Source: Candidatus Iainarchaeum sp.
Lineage (GTDB): Archaea; Iainarchaeota; Iainarchaeia; Iainarchaeales; CSSED10-239
Assembly: GCA_028700905.1 (NCBI GenBank)
Contig: JAQVRT010000002.1
Coordinates: forward strand, 10,840-42,839
Direction of reading: 5' to 3'
DNA length: 32,000 nt
Part shown: one piece after another, positions 4,845 through 31,720 of the stretch
How the letters are laid out: each line of letters starts with the position of its first letter
Numbering within the stretch: position 1 is the stretch's first letter
Program-made: the position numbers and the translations under genes
Notes under the pieces: generated by a model
Database searches by the model: none
Told to the model about the DNA's origin: nothing
What the model saw: only the letters and a program-made list of their open reading frames with translations

Positions 4845-7364
4845 TTATTTTTTATAATCTTCTAATTTTTTTTGTTCTTTTTTAAAAAGAATTCTTTTTT
4901 CATCTTGATTATTTTTTTTAACTTCTTGCAAATTAGTAGAAGATTTATTTTGTTTTAAAAAAACATCTTCTTCTAAATCCCTTTGAATTAATAATGCTTT
5001 TTCAATAATTTCTTCTGGAAGACCAGCAATTTTAGCAACTTGAATTCCATAACTTTTATTAATTCCACCTTTAATAAGTTTATGATAAAAAACTAAATTA
5101 TTATCTTCTTCTTTTGCAGTAACATGGTAATTACTAATTCCTTCAAATAATTCTTCCATTTTATTTAGTTGATGATAATGGGTTGCAACTAAAGTTTTTG
5201 ATTTAACTATATTATTTAAATAATCTGTAATTGACCAAGCAAGACTTAATCCATCATAAGTACTTGTACCTCTTCCAACTTCATCTAGAATAATAAAACT
5301 ATTATTTGTACAATGATTTAAAATATAAGAAATTTCAGACATCTCAACTAAAAAAGTACTTTGACCATGTAAAATATCATCAGAAGCACCAATTCTTGTG
5401 AAAATTCCATCAATTAAACCAATTTCAGCATCTGTTGCAGGAACAAAGCAACCAACATGTCCAAGAATAATTGCAAGACAAACACTTCTCATATAACTAC
5501 TTTTACCAGACATATTCGGACCAGTAATTATCATTGTTCTTTCTAAGTTATCTAAAGTACAATCATTTGGTATAAATTCAATATTTTTTTCAATAATTGG
5601 ATGTCTTAAATTTTTAAATGTTAATTTATTAGAATCATTTATAATTGGTCTTGAATAATTATTATATAAAGATACATTTGCAAATGAATAATAAACATCA
5701 AGTTCTGAAATTAAACTTGCAACTAAACTTATTTCTTCTCTATAGGTATTGATCTCTTTACAAATTTCTAAAAAAATATTATATTCTAGTTCAATTCTTT
5801 TTTCTTGAGCATTTAAAACAATTATTTCTTTTTCAGATAATTCTTTTGTTGTAAATCTTTCTGCGTTTACAAGTGTTTGTTTTCTCTCAAAATAAGAAGG
5901 CACTTCTTTTGATTGTGCTTTTGGAATTTCTATATAATATCCAAATACTTTATTAAATTTTACTTTTAAAGATTTAATATTTGTTTCATTTTTTAATCTT
6001 GCTTCAAATTCAACTAACCAAGAATTAATATTTTTAGAAGTATAAATTAAATCACTTAATTCTTTTGAATAACCTGGTTTTATAAATTTACCTTCTCTAA
6101 CTGTAAAAGGAGGTTCTTCAACAATTGAAATATTAATTAATTCATGTAATTTATCTAAAGTAATTAACTCACTGTTTAATATTTTTAAATTTTTAGAAGA
6201 AGTACTCTCTAAAATCATTTTTATTTTTGGAAGTATTGAAAGACTTTGTTTTAAAGAAATTAAATCTCTTGGATTTGCATTACCAAAACCAATTTTACTA
6301 ATTATTTTTTCAATATCTCCAATATACGATAAATTAAAAGAAATCTCTTGCATTAAATGTTGATTATTAATTAATTCTTCAACAGAATCATAAATATCAT
6401 TTAATTTTTCTTTATCTAGTATAGGGTGTAATAAATCAAAATATAATTTTCTATAACCCATAGGTGTTTTTGTATGATTAATTAAATGGAATAAAGAGTT
6501 TTTTATTGAAAAATCTTGAAGATTATAAACTAATTCTAAATTTCTAACAGTTTTTCGATCTAATTTTAAATATTTGTTTAATGAATATTCTTTTATAGTT
6601 GTAATATAGCTTAAATTTGAAAATTGAGTTTCTTTTAAATATTTAATAGCATTATATGCTGATAAAATAATTTCTGATGATTGGTTACTTGAAATCATCC
6701 CAAAAGGAGTTAAAGATTTCATGTTGAAGTGATTTAGTAGCTCTTGATAGGCAAATTCAACATCTAAATTTTCTGTATAGTTTATAATGGTGCTCGGTAT
6801 TGCTTTTTTAATAAGATTAAGTTGATCTATATTTTTTAAAATATTCTTTGTTAATAATATTTCTTTTGGTTTATTTAATATAAGTTCATTTAAAAGATTT
6901 GAAAAATCATTAAAAGAAGTAATTTTAAATTCACCTGTAGTAATATCAACTAAAGAAAATCCAAATTTATCTTTATAATTTGTAATAGAGCATAAAAAAT
7001 TATTATCATAGGAATCATTAAAAAAAGTACTAGGAGTAATTATTCTTGTAACTGCTCTTTTAACCAGACCTTTTGCAAATTTAGGATTTTCTATTTGATC
7101 GCAAATTACTACTTTTTTTCCAGATTTAATTAATTTTGCAATATAAGGATCAATTGAATGGTAAGGTATACCTGCAAGAGGAGCTTCAGTTGCCCCTTTA
7201 CCTCTTTTGGTTAAAGTTATGTTTAGGATACTCGATGCTTCTTTTGCATCATCAAAAAACATTTCATAAAAATCTCCCGCTCTAAAAAGTAAAATACCTT
7301 CAGGGTATTGCTTTTTAGTTTCAACATATTGTTTCATCATAGGAGTATATGTTTTATCATCCAT
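4845..7364 (-). CDS. mutS: DNA mismatch repair protein MutS (bacterial MutS1 type)
   Basis: N-terminal mismatch-binding signature TPMMKQYVETKKQYPEGILLFRAGDFYEMFFDDA. Walker A GPNMSGKSSYMR, DEVGRGTSTYDG, ATHYH. I prefer the ATG at 7364 (MDDKTYTPMM) to the TTG at 7388 used by the track. The stop lies 10 nt upstream of the mutL start. Confidence 0.93.
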   Translation of the reverse strand: MDDKTYTPMMKQYVETKKQYPEGILLFRAGDFYEMFFDDAKEASSILNITLTKRGKGATEAPLAGIPYHSIDPYIAKLIKSGKKVVICDQIENPKFAKGLVKRAVTRIITPSTFFNDSYDNNFLCSITNYKDKFGFSLVDITTGEFKITSFNDFSNLLNELILNKPKEILLTKNILKNIDQLNLIKKAIPSTIINYTENLDVEFAYQELLNHFNMKSLTPFGMISSNQSSEIILSAYNAIKYLKETQFSNLSYITTIKEYSLNKYLKLDRKTVRNLELVYNLQDFSIKNSLFHLINHTKTPMGYRKLYFDLLHPILDKEKLNDIYDSVEELINNQHLMQEISFNLSYIGDIEKIISKIGFGNANPRDLISLKQSLSILPKIKMILESTSSKNLKILNSELITLDKLHELINISIVEEPPFTVREGKFIKPGYSKELSDLIYTSKNINSWLVEFEARLKNETNIKSLKVKFNKVFGYYIEIPKAQSKEVPSYFERKQTLVNAERFTTKELSEKEIIVLNAQEKRIELEYNIFLEICKEINTYREEISLVASLISELDVYYSFANVSLYNNYSRPIINDSNKLTFKNLRHPIIEKNIEFIPNDCTLDNLERTMIITGPNMSGKSSYMRSVCLAIILGHVGCFVPATDAEIGLIDGIFTRIGASDDILHGQSTFLVEMSEISYILNHCTNNSFIILDEVGRGTSTYDGLSLAWSITDYLNNIVKSKTLVATHYHQLNKMEELFEGISNYHVTAKEEDNNLVFYHKLIKGGINKSYGIQVAKIAGLPEEIIEKALLIQRDLEEDVFLKQNKSSTNLQEVKKNNQDEKRILFKKEQKKLEDYKK

Positions 7365-9047: not shown

Positions 9048-9122
<75 letters not shown>

Positions 9123-9314
9123 CTTAAAATTATGGTTAAATTACTACTTTTCTTGGACATATTTTCACATTATAAATAACCTTATTTTAAATTAAAAAAA
9201 AGAAATTATAACCCTTATAAATAAAATAAAGGCTAAAAAAACCTCTATTATTAATAAAAACAAATAATAGATTTATTTTTTAAAAAATAACCTTAAATTA
9301 AGTATATTTTAATT

Positions 9315-9541
9315 GTAATTACCATGGTAATTACGATAAAAAACACTGATTATTATATAAAAATAGATAATAATTCATTATACTACATAATTATATATTA
9401 AGAATTATTAATTATATTTTTTAATAAATAAAATAATTAGTAATTACCATCAAATTAATCAAATAATTACGGTAATTACGATAAATAGGACTATATAATT
9501 ACTGTAATTACCAATCTATTTAAAATAATTACGGTAATTAC
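9315..9541. repeat. Array of the palindromic octamer GTAATTAC upstream of the 9549 gene (candidate operator or iteron array)
   Basis: Perfect 20-bp palindrome GTAATTAC-CATG-GTAATTAC at 9315..9334. Four doublets of the type ATAATTA(C/G)-N0-2-(G)TAATTAC lie at 9433..9447, 9463..9479, 9495..9511 and 9525..9541, spaced 30-32 bp apart. Two of the doublets are identical 17-mers. GGTAATTACGATAAA occurs twice (9326..9340, 9471..9485). Confidence 0.85.
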
Positions 9542-9548
9542 TATATAT

Positions 9549-10118
9549 ATGGGCTTACTAAAATTTATTAAAAAAATGTTTTCAAAAGAAAAAAATAATG
9601 AAAACAACACAACTACAAATAATAATACAAATATAGCTATAGAAAAAAACACAATAAATAGTGCAAATACTATACCCTATTCTTCTGAAAATATTAATAA
9701 AAATATTAACCAAAATAATAATATTAATGAAAATTTAAGTAATGAAAAATATTTAGAACAAGAAAAATTATTACAATTAAAATATCTTAATAATAAAAAT
9801 AATATAATTGAAGATAATGTTCAAACAGCAGATGTTGAAAATATTTCAATAAAACAATTAAATACAATTTGGGATATTTTAAAAATTAAAGAAAACACTC
9901 AAGCAGAACATATTATTAATTCTATACCAACAGATAAATGGGTAACTATGGATGAAATAAGACATAACATAAAACTTAATTTTAATGTAGAATATTCTAA
10001 TGAAAAAAGTCTTTATCCTTATTTAAAAACACTAACAGATATAAATTTAATAAAATTAAACAACACAGGTAAAAAAAGAACTTGGAAAAAAAATATTATA
10101 TTTATTAAAGAAAATTAA
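9549..10118 (+). CDS. Hypothetical protein: Asn-rich low-complexity N-terminal half, possible winged-helix-like C-terminal domain
   Basis: Clean 189-aa ORF with an ATG start, flanked on both sides by GTAATTAC sites. The C-terminal ~90 aa (WVTMDEIRHNIK ... YPYLKTLTDINLIKLNNTGKKRTWKK) has a helix-helix-hairpin pattern compatible with a wHTH. I recognise no family. Confidence 0.5.
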   Translation: MGLLKFIKKMFSKEKNNENNTTTNNNTNIAIEKNTINSANTIPYSSENINKNINQNNNINENLSNEKYLEQEKLLQLKYLNNKNNIIEDNVQTADVENISIKQLNTIWDILKIKENTQAEHIINSIPTDKWVTMDEIRHNIKLNFNVEYSNEKSLYPYLKTLTDINLIKLNNTGKKRTWKKNIIFIKEN

Positions 10119-10167
10119 GTAATTACTAAAAAATAATAGTAATTACTAAAAAAAATATAGTAATTAC
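10119..10167. repeat. Three further GTAATTAC(T) sites, starting at the base after the stop codon of the 9549 gene
   Basis: GTAATTAC at 10119..10126, 10139..10146 and 10160..10167 (20-21 bp spacing). They sit in the 58-bp spacer between two convergent genes. Confidence 0.85.
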
Positions 10168-10176
10168 TTTACAAAA

Positions 10177-10776
10177 CTAAATTTTATTTTTAATTTCTAA
10201 ATAGTTATTATAAAATTTAATTAATTTTTCAGATTCTTCTTTAACTTCTTTAAACCATTCAAAATTAATTATATTTTCTACAATTTTAGAAATATTTGCT
10301 AAATGTGTTTTATCATAAATATTATTTTCAGTAATATATTTTAATTCATCATAAATATTTGTTTCTTTATTATTAAGATTAATTATCTTATAATTATATA
10401 TATAATCTTCCATAATTTTAATAATATTTGAAGAATCTAAATCAATTTCATCAACAGTATATTTAACATCCCATTCACCTTTACTTTTCCAATTATGTGC
10501 TGGATTAATTCCTGTTGAAAAATAATCTATAATTTTATTTTCATAACCTTTAGGAATAATTACTGCGTTTCTTCCTGGTTTATAATGAGGTATGTCTGTT
10601 AAAATTCCTTTTCTAATATATAAATATGGTTTATTATTTTTTTTAGTTACATTTTGTTGATAACCATAAATAGATCTAAATACTTTTTGATAAAGATAAG
10701 AAGATCTATTAATATCATCTTTAAAAATAAATTTATATTTTATATATATTGATTTTATTTTACTCAAGAGAGACAC
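10177..10776 (-). CDS. Hypothetical protein (no recognisable family)
   Basis: 199-aa ORF. The track start is a GTG at 10776. An in-frame TTG at 10767 lies 6 nt downstream of a GGGGTG Shine-Dalgarno-like motif and may be the true start. No motifs I can assign. Confidence 0.5.
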   Translation of the reverse strand: MSLLSKIKSIYIKYKFIFKDDINRSSYLYQKVFRSIYGYQQNVTKKNNKPYLYIRKGILTDIPHYKPGRNAVIIPKGYENKIIDYFSTGINPAHNWKSKGEWDVKYTVDEIDLDSSNIIKIMEDYIYNYKIINLNNKETNIYDELKYITENNIYDKTHLANISKIVENIINFEWFKEVKEESEKLIKFYNNYLEIKNKI

Positions 10777-31531: not shown

Positions 31532-31720
31532 ATGAATAGATTAAATTTACTTTTAAATGACCAAAGAGGTCAAGTTTCTATTGAATATTTAATCATGATT
31601 GTTTTTGGTATGATTTTAGTAATTACAACTGGTATTGTTATATTAAATTTAAATAGTTTTATAACTGTTGCAAAATCTAAAATATTAACTTATAGAGATA
31701 ATATTTTAGCTTCTTTATAA
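31532..31720 (+). CDS. Short class III signal-peptide pilin-like protein (62 aa)
   Basis: MNRLNLLLNDQRG|QVSIEYLIMIVFGMILVITTGIVIL. Same architecture as the 30097 ORF: leader, G|Q, Glu+5, one helix and a short tail. Confidence 0.7.
   Translation: MNRLNLLLNDQRGQVSIEYLIMIVFGMILVITTGIVILNLNSFITVAKSKILTYRDNILASL

Follow-up and report, generated by a model that had tools for sequence, protein, structure and literature searches.

Palindromic operator arrays beside their own gene are the norm for small winged-helix repressors. The ArsR/SmtB proteins CzrA, SmtB, NolR and HlyU are small proteins with an inverted-repeat operator over their own promoter, and in archaea the repressors Phr (Pyrococcus), MDR1 (Archaeoglobus) and LrpA bind at or just downstream of the TATA box in their own promoters and block polymerase recruitment. 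To our knowledge no transcription regulator of DPANN archaea, which cannot be grown alone, has been characterised, and none was found in the literature searched; searches for the octamer GTAATTAC and for DPANN or Diapherotrites regulators returned nothing relevant. The locus described here lies in a 32,000-nt stretch of DNA (the window, meaning the whole of the sequence analysed) and resembles the Phr, MDR1 and LrpA promoters in having candidate operators, several of them adjacent, over the TATA box and the start of their own gene, where a bound protein would be expected to block polymerase. It differs from them in protein family and motif, in having up to 9 sites that include distal and downstream ones, and in the strict helical phasing and phylum-wide invariance of the operator. 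We consider it probable, on computational grounds, that the octamers are cooperative, helically phased autoregulatory operators of the winged-helix gene that they enclose.

As the original prediction had stated, the octamer GTAATTAC is found 12 times in the window, with starts at 5127, 9315, 9327, 9440, 9472, 9504, 9534, 10119, 10139, 10160, 29819 and 31619, whereas in dinucleotide shuffles of the window it averages 0.59 copies and never exceeds 3. Nine of the twelve fall within 853 bp (9315-10167), where they flank the gene at 9549-10118, and all nine lie outside that open reading frame, again as described. The other three copies had been put at roughly the chance level; with 0.59 expected for the entire window they are somewhat above it, and the last of them starts at 31619 rather than 31618. 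Tandem Repeats Finder (TRF) reports both the upstream array (period 30, 4.1 copies) and the downstream array (period 21, 4.0 copies) as tandem repeats. The features of the region are as follows.

9048-9123, plus strand: tRNA-Met (CAT), found by ARAGORN and Rfam; the conserved left border of the regulatory spacer.
9151-9159, plus strand: conserved non-coding block TCTTGGACA, nearly invariant in a MAFFT alignment of 19 species.
9315-9334, no strand: putative distal operator pair GTAATTAC-CATG-GTAATTAC, a 20-bp palindrome, by direct reading and octamer count.
9383-9390, plus strand: block CTACATAA, conserved as TTATACATAA in relatives and located between the distal and the proximal candidate operators, from the species alignment.
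9440-9447, no strand: O4, a single octamer site with a degenerate left half at 9433-9439, from the octamer count and relatives.
9463-9479, no strand: O3, ATAATTAC-G-GTAATTAC, which holds the 15-bp palindrome TAATTAC-N-GTAATTA.
9495-9511, no strand: O2, ATAATTAC-T-GTAATTAC, at position -53, immediately upstream of the BRE/TATA region.
9519-9527, plus strand: TATA box TTTAAAATA, by direct reading, starting 30 nt before the ATG.
9525-9541, no strand: O1, ATAATTAC-G-GTAATTAC, the most invariant columns of the 19-species alignment.
9549-10118, plus strand: gene for a predicted DNA-binding protein of 189 aa, from homologues, AlphaFold2 (AF2), Foldseek and hydrophobic moment.
10119-10167, no strand: downstream array of three GTAATTAC sites in units of about 21 bp (TAGTAATTACTAAAAAA...), by direct reading, count and TRF.
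10177-10776, minus strand: convergent 199-aa gene, given as context; a syntenic partner across the phylum.

Direct reading bore out most of the geometry that had been claimed for the array, namely the perfect palindrome at 9315-9334, a TATA-like box near 9519, a final octamer whose last base, 9541, is separated from the ATG (9549) by 7 nt, and downstream sites that begin right after the stop codon (the first at 10119, after TAA) at spacings of 20 and 21 bp. The non-coding spacer before the gene, 9124-9548, is indeed the longest in this compact window. Four doublets had been proposed; three are canonical ATAATTAC-N-GTAATTAC, while the fourth, in the O4 region (9433-9447), is a compressed ATAATTA joined to GTAATTAC, whose octamer starts 32 bp upstream of that of O3, and it is a single site in relatives. 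A separate direct repeat, AAATAACCTTA, is present at 9174 and 9285 as noted; it is not kept even in Ca. Forterrea (L003) and is probably due to chance.

The proximal candidate operator, O1, is arranged around the core promoter. Its palindrome TAATTAC-N-GTAATTA (9526-9540) ends 8 nt before the ATG, and the site as a whole overlaps the 3' end of the TATA box, occupies the interval between TATA and start, and lies at -23 to -27 in about 20 genomes. The TATA box itself is kept at -30 to -34 in the main clade, as TTTAAAATA or TTTATAATA. Its distance of 30 nt from the ATG implies a leaderless or near-leaderless mRNA, the transcription start being one that we infer from the usual archaeal TATA-to-start distance. 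O1 spans the 3' TATA edge and about 20 bp up to the start of the predicted leaderless gene. O3, at -85 from the ATG, is in the same position in the closest relatives. The tRNA-Met at the left border looks like an initiator (A1:U72, GGG/CCC anticodon stem). The distal pair is kept in most of the 19 aligned main-clade species as two GGTAATTAC sites 12 or about 21 bp apart, and in the near-identical strain L001 one half of it is mutated to GTAATTAT. With respect to RNA, Rfam at gathering thresholds finds four tRNAs in the window and no other family, and a relaxed Rfam search of 9100-9560 gave no credible RNA family.

The original prediction had proposed looking for the array in relatives that keep the gene, and there it is conserved. 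Among the 33 GTDB species-level loci with a homologue (GC content 21-47%), the octamer lies upstream of the homologue in 33 of 33, including the genomes of 37-47% GC, where so AT-rich an octamer is very improbable by chance. In the 700 bp before the ATG, taken over the window and these 33 loci together, sites are about 315 times as dense as a Markov model predicts. Relatives usually have three doublets ATAATTAC-N-GTAATTAC of 17 bp each, whose distance to the ATG is fixed, the 15-bp palindrome sits almost exclusively at -85/-53/-23 or at -89/-57/-27 (89 matches within the focal region, 14 beyond it), and in the alignment of 19 species the spacers have diverged, leaving the three doublets and the TATA box almost invariant. 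At three loci (L027, L028 and L030) the gene follows a dus-like gene within a single fused operon, and in each case the octamers lie upstream of the operon start (for L027, where the homologue is part of the dus operon, at that operon's promoter); a variant of the conserved TCTTGGACA block, CTAGGACA, also precedes the dus-wHTH operon at these loci. To judge from these arrangements, the octamer sites follow the promoter when the gene joins an operon.

The sites are also regularly spaced. Ninety-nine spacings between neighbouring sites cluster at 9-13, 18-22, 30-33, 39-42, 50-51 and 61-62 bp, with a best period of 10.2 bp (R = 0.79), and the phasing persists at p of about 1e-4 when each distinct spacing is counted only once. 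The three doublet operators and the auxiliary single sites, spaced at multiples of about 10.2 bp, all face the same side of the helix.

The enclosed gene had been called an orphan. It belongs instead to a family of homologues across the Iainarchaeota (Diapherotrites, DPANN), to which the family is restricted; a search of 1.84 billion proteins returned 37 representatives, all at E <= 1e-10, with an empty twilight zone and hence a sharp boundary. The 189-aa protein is laid out as a cationic amphipathic helix (residues 2-15; the N-terminal peptide is MGLLKFIKKMFSK), a low-complexity linker (about 16-100) and a winged helix (about 101-186, nt ~9849-10106). The last of these supports the suggestion that the C-terminus is winged-helix-like, for which structure prediction had been recommended: AF2 gives pLDDT above 90 for residues ~120-186, with helices at 101-115, 117-125, 134-145 and 156-164 and strands at 168-173 and 176-181, whereas residues 2-15 are helical at low confidence and the linker of about 85 aa is disordered. 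The best PDB matches in Foldseek are the ArsR/SmtB repressors CzrA (6cdb), NolR (4omz) and HlyU, with E values from 7e-4 to 1e-2 and a target-normalised TM of about 0.6.

The likeness to ArsR/SmtB proteins thus extends to the fold of residues ~101-186 as well as to the small size and the inverted repeats over the gene's own promoter. Unlike them, the protein lies outside the family profiles (Pfam HTH_5 and HTH_20, NCBIfam, PDB sequences): we found no Pfam family at E <= 0.1, no relevant NCBIfam match at E <= 1, and nothing relevant in a profile search of PDB sequences. It also differs in having no C-terminal alpha5 dimerisation/sensor helix in its model (model and alignment end ~3-8 residues past the wing) and no alpha3N or alpha5 ligand-sensing residues, in having no Cys in its conserved domain, and in its extra N-terminal amphipathic helix and disordered linker. 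A TFE-beta-like factor was considered, tfe-alpha being a neighbour, and was rejected on the C-terminal position of the winged helix, the lack of an Fe-S Cys motif and the ArsR-like fold matches. The family is previously undescribed, and the proposed switch is itself ordinary in kind.

Conservation within the protein is concentrated in the DNA-binding domain. The residues W108, D109, E115, T117, Q118, A119, H121, W131, I141, E148, Y149 and N151 are invariant, those of the recognition helix and wing are invariant or nearly so across the family, and the winged-helix domain of the window shares 52-55% identity with that of the GC-rich clade, against 30-37% for TFE-alpha. Adjacency and co-conservation suggest that the enclosed protein is what binds the octamers. 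An unlikely alternative is that they are operators for a different, unlinked DNA-binding protein, of which the winged-helix gene would be one target; the binder was, after all, proposed only from its adjacency, and some clades have octamers close to further promoters, in L028 and L033-L035 at 62-67 nt before tfe and in L008 as a five-site array upstream of mutS, which is compatible with a multi-gene regulator. Against an unlinked binder, however, the invariant octamer is paralleled next door by an invariant recognition helix and wing throughout the range of 21-47% GC, array density is highest at the winged-helix gene in every genome, the winged-helix gene is the one conserved DNA-binding gene linked to the array, and arrays beside the binder's own gene are what small winged-helix repressors usually have.

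We favour autoregulation because the octamer excess, the co-inheritance of gene and sites, the alignment footprint, the movement of the sites with the promoter, the phasing, the predicted fold and the sharp bounds of the family all point to it. The cooperative autoregulatory operators of the original prediction thereby gain several independent lines of computational evidence, namely the fold, co-inheritance, TATA overlap and phasing. As we picture the mechanism, the winged helix would recognise GTAATTAC-based sites, the high-affinity form probably being a dimer-bound palindrome of 15-17 bp, (A)TAATTAC-N-GTAATTA(C). Occupancy would be cooperative, and contacts made to the distal pair and to sites downstream might stabilise it, the downstream candidates being those after the stop codon here and doublets at about +100 within the coding region in other clades. 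An occupied proximal operator would block recruitment of TBP/TFB or of RNA polymerase, giving negative autoregulation. Regulation is probably repressive, although O2 and O3 lie where archaeal activators bind and the sign could be positive or dual.

Several observations count against this proposal of autoregulation. The half-sites of the 8-bp palindrome are too close together for a classical winged-helix dimer; the stoichiometry may be one dimer on each 17-bp doublet or monomers on individual octamers. No sensor domain is recognisable in the protein, and a regulator of itself only would be pointless. The downstream array lies between two stop codons, an unexpected place for a transcription operator and one where an RNA hairpin is possible. 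Finally, flanking DNA is about 8-fold enriched in octamers (53 observed against ~6.5 expected; mostly in coding DNA and mostly upstream), which simple autoregulation does not explain.

The downstream array can be read differently from the rest, as RNA or DNA hairpins that serve as a bidirectional terminator or 3'-end stabiliser and not as protein-binding sites. The segment 10105-10200 folds into 11-bp AGUAAUUACUA/UAGUAAUUACU hairpins (MFE -13.8 kcal/mol, z = -2.4), the array lies exactly between the stop codons of the two convergent genes and is followed by T-runs, and its copy number, three here against four in strain L001, is as expected of a slippage-prone repeat. It is confined to the closest clade, in which L003, L004 and L020 carry it and L005 has one site. 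We doubt that hairpins are the function, though: the core of the repeat is identical to the operator octamer, the spacing of 20-21 bp amounts to two helical turns, as in the distal pairs of other species, and the doublets at about +100 in other clades suggest that a protein-binding site downstream is repeatedly needed. A terminator scan was negative, and archaeal termination is not known to need hairpins. The convergent 199-aa gene lies downstream in 29 of 33 loci (tblastn); its product has no Pfam or NCBIfam match and, at an AF2 pLDDT of 90.6, no PDB fold match below E = 0.05.

The flanking sites and the N-terminal helix bear on a larger role for the locus. An amphipathic cationic N-terminal helix is predicted in 31 of 31 aligned members (hydrophobic moment 0.5-0.9, net charge up to +4), is followed by the long disordered linker, and presumably resembles membrane-targeting sequences of the MinD/Noc type. 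The bacterial Noc-NBS and ParB-parS systems are comparable in that a predicted amphipathic helix, membrane-targeting in Noc, accompanies a site-specific DNA-binding domain, and in that palindromic sites cluster around the binder's own gene, some of them in coding DNA. Here such sites bracket the gene and occur in its own coding DNA and in that of trm56, the array upstream of mutS in L008 is another beyond the promoter, and 0.7-4 kb upstream the octamer is enriched 11-32 fold, with no enrichment downstream. The locus belongs to a chromosomal block that is syntenic across the phylum and comprises mutS, tRNAs, trm56, tfe, tRNA-Met, the winged-helix gene, the 199-aa gene, a PRC-barrel gene and xerA. 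A mobile element at a tRNA, with its integrase, was considered for this block and rejected: the recombinase, 1.4 kb away, is scored as a XerA equivalog at 277 bits (cutoff 220), and the block is vertically syntenic throughout.

These features could be those of a chromosome-organising or tethering centre of the Noc/NBS or ParB/parS kind, with the amphipathic helix directed to the membrane or a partner, the winged helix to the clustered sites, and autoregulation as a by-product; the missing sensor domain would fit, but we regard such a centre as quite unlikely. In its most explicit form, to which we give equally little credence, a membrane-anchored DNA binder and phased sites beside tfe, an initiator-type tRNA and xerA would make up a nucleation or anchoring centre, and the overlap with the promoter would set the protein's dosage. 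Against this, the protein has no homology to ParB, Noc, SegB or AspA and an ArsR-like rather than ParB-like fold, no partner ATPase of the ParA/SegA type is nearby, and membrane binding by the helix is a prediction only. The best-conserved sites, moreover, are exactly the ones lying over the core promoter, where a control of transcription would place them. Secondary sites are clade-specific, with just four isolated copies in about 45 kb of DNA flanking this window's locus, and in the ~375 kb sampled the sites are concentrated within a few kb of the gene and on one promoter, not chromosome-wide. Were the helix a membrane anchor, the protein would be a rare membrane-tethered DNA-binding protein in archaea. 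A true anchoring centre would be a DPANN-specific functional analogue of Noc/ParB that ties the organisation or segregation of the chromosome to the membrane; we know of no described segregation machinery in DPANN archaea.

A further suggestion of the original prediction was that the repeats are iterons or ORB-like elements. Like the ORB and mini-ORB elements bound by Orc1/Cdc6, they are short and repeated in a long AT-rich intergenic region: the spacer is the longest in the window, its length is held to 320-515 bp between the tRNA-Met and the gene in 27 genomes, repeated palindromes lie on both sides of a stretch of about 105 bp that is AT-rich and might serve as an unwinding element, and xerA is close. 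We nevertheless judge a replication origin, or the iterons of a replicon or partition locus, highly improbable. No orc1/cdc6, Rep or ParA-type gene occurs in the window or in ~8 kb to its left and 7 kb to its right, and among all called genes of the extended window, searched with Pfam, the only AAA+ replication gene near the locus is that of the RFC small subunit, about 15 kb away. For Ca. Forterrea, the closest complete genome, cumulative GC skew and Z-curve analysis placed the origin beside cdc6, and the genome was reset there (PMC5905446). We infer that the deposited record starts at the origin, and the homologous locus, at 764,108-776,674 of 839,632 bp, is ~69 kb from coordinate 1, so the mapped origin appears to be about that far away. 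GC skew within the window itself carries no informative signal. Unlike origin elements, the sites hold a constant position relative to TATA and ATG and move with the promoter into an operon. Plasmid or phage relatives were also lacking: tblastn against 72,556 plasmids and 50,697 phages gave no match, and the doublet occurs in 2.9 million IMG/VR viral contigs as chance singletons only (89 stretches, none with two separate doublets and one with two overlapping matches).

A metagenome scan for three phased octamers returned at least 120 loci; among the matches listed, four carry the winged-helix gene and there are no extra Iainarchaeota targets. About 20 of the other loci were inspected and are unrelated, some being eukaryote-like CGTGTAATTACACG arrays on seawater contigs of ~52% GC with few ORFs, and further ones are satellite or organelle-like palindromic repeats. 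The scan shows that octamer arrays by themselves are not diagnostic.

What sets the locus apart is the pairing of one small protein with one exact motif of 8 bp (15-17 bp in its longer form), invariant across the sampled genomes of a whole phylum and testable with recombinant protein and synthetic DNA only. Gene calls in the family are affected by the same region: several database entries of homologues are extended upstream through the operators and so acquire an extra N-terminal 'IITVIT', and others are mislabelled 'transposase' or 'MutL'. The present analysis corrects both the over-extended starts and the wrong labels.

Twelve copies of the octamer GTAATTAC, an 8-bp palindrome, lie in the 32-kb window; dinucleotide-preserving shuffles give an expectation of 0.59 and a maximum of 3. 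Nine of these copies fall at 9315-10167, every one outside the open reading frame at 9549-10118 (+) that encodes a 189-residue winged-helix protein. The count and direct reading of the sequence thus confirm the non-coding cluster that the original prediction placed around this gene, and the octamer array is genuine. Direct reading also recovered the predicted 20-bp palindrome, the TATA-like box, the 7-nt gap between the final upstream octamer and the ATG, and the regularly spaced sites after the stop codon:

9315-9334: distal 20-bp palindrome
9463, 9495 and 9525: canonical doublets ATAATTAC-N-GTAATTAC, each containing the perfect 15-bp palindrome TAATTAC-N-GTAATTA
9519-9527: TATA-like TTTAAAATA
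10119-10167: downstream array of three octamers, the first at the base after the stop codon, spaced 20 and 21 bp

Both arrays are reported as tandem repeats by TRF, with periods of 30 and 21. Four doublets had been described; three are canonical, but the fourth is compressed and corresponds to a single site in relatives. The AAATAACCTTA direct repeat noted at 9174-9184 and 9285-9295 is present but is not conserved in Ca. Forterrea, and is probably a chance occurrence in AT-rich DNA. A near-identical strain (L001, JGI contig Ga0451658_000012), which differs at its own coordinates 9760-9790 and 10570-10640, has four downstream 21-bp units, compared with three in the window, and one mutated half in the distal palindrome (GTAATTAT-CATG-GTAATTAC), indicating that the array is polymorphic within the species.

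The window has a GC content of ~23% and encodes the archaeal proteins TFE-alpha, aTrm56 and XerA; the nearest named genome is Ca. Forterrea multitransposorum (phylum Iainarchaeota/Diapherotrites, DPANN). The gene order, retained locally throughout the phylum, is mutL, mutS, tRNA-Phe/Lys/Lys, trm56, tfe-alpha, tRNA-Met, a 425-bp spacer and the winged-helix gene, which is followed by three minus-strand genes (a 199-aa gene, a PRC-barrel gene and xerA). An integrated element was excluded by the XerA equivalog score and vertical synteny. Features flanking the array are as follows:

9048-9123: tRNA-Met with initiator features seen by direct reading (A1:U72 and GGG/CCC in the anticodon stem)
9151-9159: conserved non-coding block TCTTGGACA in the tRNA-to-gene spacer
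9383-9390: conserved non-coding block CTACATAA in the same spacer (TTATACATAA in relatives)
10177-10776 (-): convergent 199-aa gene, syntenic in 29 of 33 loci

From these features the tRNA-Met beside the array looks like an initiator; its orthologue in locus L032 (~5520-5610) apparently carries an intron after the anticodon and was missed by ARAGORN. The two spacer blocks are conserved in many species and have no match in Rfam, and the position of TCTTGGACA relative to the tRNA shifts in other clades. The very confident AF2 model of the 199-aa protein (pLDDT 90.6) is alpha/beta in its N-terminal part and helical in its C-terminal part; since neither a PDB fold match below E = 0.05 nor a Pfam or NCBIfam hit was obtained, this protein may represent an undescribed fold or family.

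The enclosed winged-helix gene had been considered an orphan. A word-indexed search instead identified 86 homologues, and a profile run exhaustively against 1.84 billion representatives returned 37 clusters, all at E <= 1e-10 with no weaker cluster, and therefore the family is small and sharply bounded. With each GTDB species represented by a single genome, 33 loci were obtained, all on Iainarchaeota-type contigs. L008 (NZ_JAEDAM010000051.1, 'Ca. Vampirococcus lugosii') and L009 (JAQUUM010000105.1, 'Bacilli bacterium') come from bins labelled as bacterial, yet carry the archaeal block of tfe, tRNAs, winged-helix gene and 199-aa gene; these two are almost certainly Iainarchaeota contigs wrongly assigned to bacterial MAGs. 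Database entries such as P0010, P0050, P0024, P0063, P0073 and P0079 need care: some gene calls extend upstream across the operators, so that N-termini like KIITVITI arise, and several homologues are misleadingly named at source ('transposase', 'DNA mismatch repair ATPase MutL').

In the family alignment, a short conserved N-terminus is joined through a variable, Asn-rich linker to a conserved C-terminal domain of ~85 residues that is 65-80% identical within the main clade, with recognition-helix and wing residues invariant or nearly so across the family. Between the window and the GC-rich clade, identity is 52-55% for the winged-helix domain, 30-37% for TFE-alpha and about 40% for Trm56. The suspected winged-helix C-terminus is supported by the AF2 model, in which residues ~101-186 (pLDDT above 90) form helices followed by a beta-hairpin wing and residues 16-100 are disordered, and by Foldseek, whose top PDB matches are ArsR/SmtB repressors (CzrA, NolR, HlyU, SmtB) and Fur-type DNA-binding domains (best E ~7e-4, target-normalised TM ~0.6). 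The protein has no sequence match in Pfam, NCBIfam or PDB. Although its predicted fold resembles that of ArsR/SmtB proteins, their alpha5 helix and sensor sites are missing from the model, and it is therefore ArsR/SmtB-like rather than a member of that family. A strongly amphipathic cationic helix is predicted at the extreme N-terminus of every member.

The array is conserved with the gene, as GTAATTAC lies upstream of the homologue in all 33 related loci, including genomes of 37-47% GC. The main-clade layout is nearly fixed: a doublet, ~32 (or 41) bp, a second doublet, 30 bp and a proximal operator, TTTA(A/T)AATAATTAC-G-GTAATTAC, followed after 7-11 nt by the ATG. The left half of this operator and the TATA box overlap; the box lies 30-34 nt before the ATG, so that the mRNA is expected to be leaderless and the operator to occupy the stretch between TATA and start. 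When the whole spacer is aligned across 19 species, operators and TATA box are almost invariant, whereas the intervening sequence has diverged. In ~375 kb of sequence the 15-bp palindrome (<= 1 mismatch) is nearly confined to -85/-53/-23 or -89/-57/-27, with 89 matches in focal regions versus 14 outside. In L027, L028 and L030 the winged-helix gene lies directly behind a dus-like gene and the octamers precede the operon start, at the dus operon promoter in L027; hence the sites track the promoter, not chromosomal position.

Start-to-start distances between neighbouring sites at all loci fall at 9-13, 18-22, 30-33, 39-42, 50-51 and 61-62 bp, with the gaps empty. A period of 10.2 bp fits best (R = 0.79, N = 99 spacings from related genomes, so that counts are not independent), and p is about 1e-4 when each distinct spacing is counted once. 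The multiple varies by clade (12 or 21; 32 or 41), yet phase is preserved. The best explanation of the array is a set of cooperative, helically phased operators by which a lineage-specific winged-helix protein regulates the leaderless promoter of its own gene; co-conservation, the TATA/ATG register, phasing and predicted fold all support the cooperative autoregulatory sites originally proposed. The protein would bind the octamer operators, and their occupancy would most likely repress transcription. The family is new and uncharacterised, with a known kind of job. The other proposal, iterons or ORB-like elements of a replication or partition locus, is disfavoured, since no orc1/cdc6, Rep or ParA gene lies in the window or within about 8 kb to its left and 7 kb to its right, no relatives were found among 72,556 plasmids and 50,697 phages, and none of 2.9 million viral contigs contains two separate doublets. 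The Forterrea origin was mapped next to cdc6 by GC skew and Z-curve (PMC5905446); it apparently lies about 69 kb from the homologous locus.

Several features go beyond simple autoregulation, namely the downstream array, operators in coding DNA, additional arrays and flank enrichment. The downstream array sits between two stop codons, is confined to the closest clade and differs in copy number between near-identical strains; for this part alone, action through RNA hairpins is a minor alternative, consistent with RNA folding (z = -2.4). Other clades have, in its place, operator sequences at ~+100 in the low-complexity coding region of the winged-helix gene, encoding GNYQ, GNYH or SNYSNY. Full doublets encoding IITVIT lie within trm56 in four species:

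L012, 4100-4150: trm56-embedded doublet
L017, 4055-4105: trm56-embedded doublet
L019, 4100-4150: trm56-embedded doublet
L021, 4105-4155: trm56-embedded doublet

These doublets vary in nucleotide sequence at the motif's degenerate positions, and in three of the four species an extra octamer encoding GNYQ follows 31 bp further on (one mismatch in L019); the window's own Trm56 gene has no embedded doublet. L008 carries five GTAATTAC sites at 18-23-bp spacing between tRNA-Phe and the mutS start (2099-2190). In two separate clades (L033 4673, L034 4684, L035 4707 and L028 3155) a single GGTAATTAC precedes the tfe-alpha start codon by 62-67 nt, immediately ahead of that gene's TATA-like box, and the general factor TFE may be a secondary target there. 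An architectural or membrane-tethering role is improbable, with some room left by the N-terminal amphipathic helix, the missing sensor domain, the coding-DNA operators and the TCTTGGACA/CTACATAA blocks.

The octamer is about 8-fold over-represented outside the focal region (53 observed, ~6.5 expected), and asymmetrically so: enrichment is 11-32 fold over 0.7-4 kb upstream, and beyond +1.5 kb the frequency is close to background. The window's organism has only 4 isolated octamers in ~45 kb of flanking sequence. Three of them, all coding (window 29819 and 31619, contig L127 14034), fall in one type-IV-pilus-like operon (T2SSE/T2SSF, class III signal peptides, prepilin peptidase), a placement that may be due to chance. 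A metagenome scan for three phased octamers listed at least 120 loci; the winged-helix gene is present at 4 of 120 listed, and the roughly 20 others inspected are unrelated, among them eukaryote-like arrays and satellite repeats. By itself the octamer is thus not diagnostic, unlike the doublet in combination with the gene. Seawater contigs of ~52% GC (L173, L175, L183, L184, L174, L232) carry arrays of CGTGTAATTACACG, a 14-bp palindrome at ~20-30-bp spacing on ORF-poor eukaryote-like contigs, which looks like an unrelated cis-element with the same core octamer.
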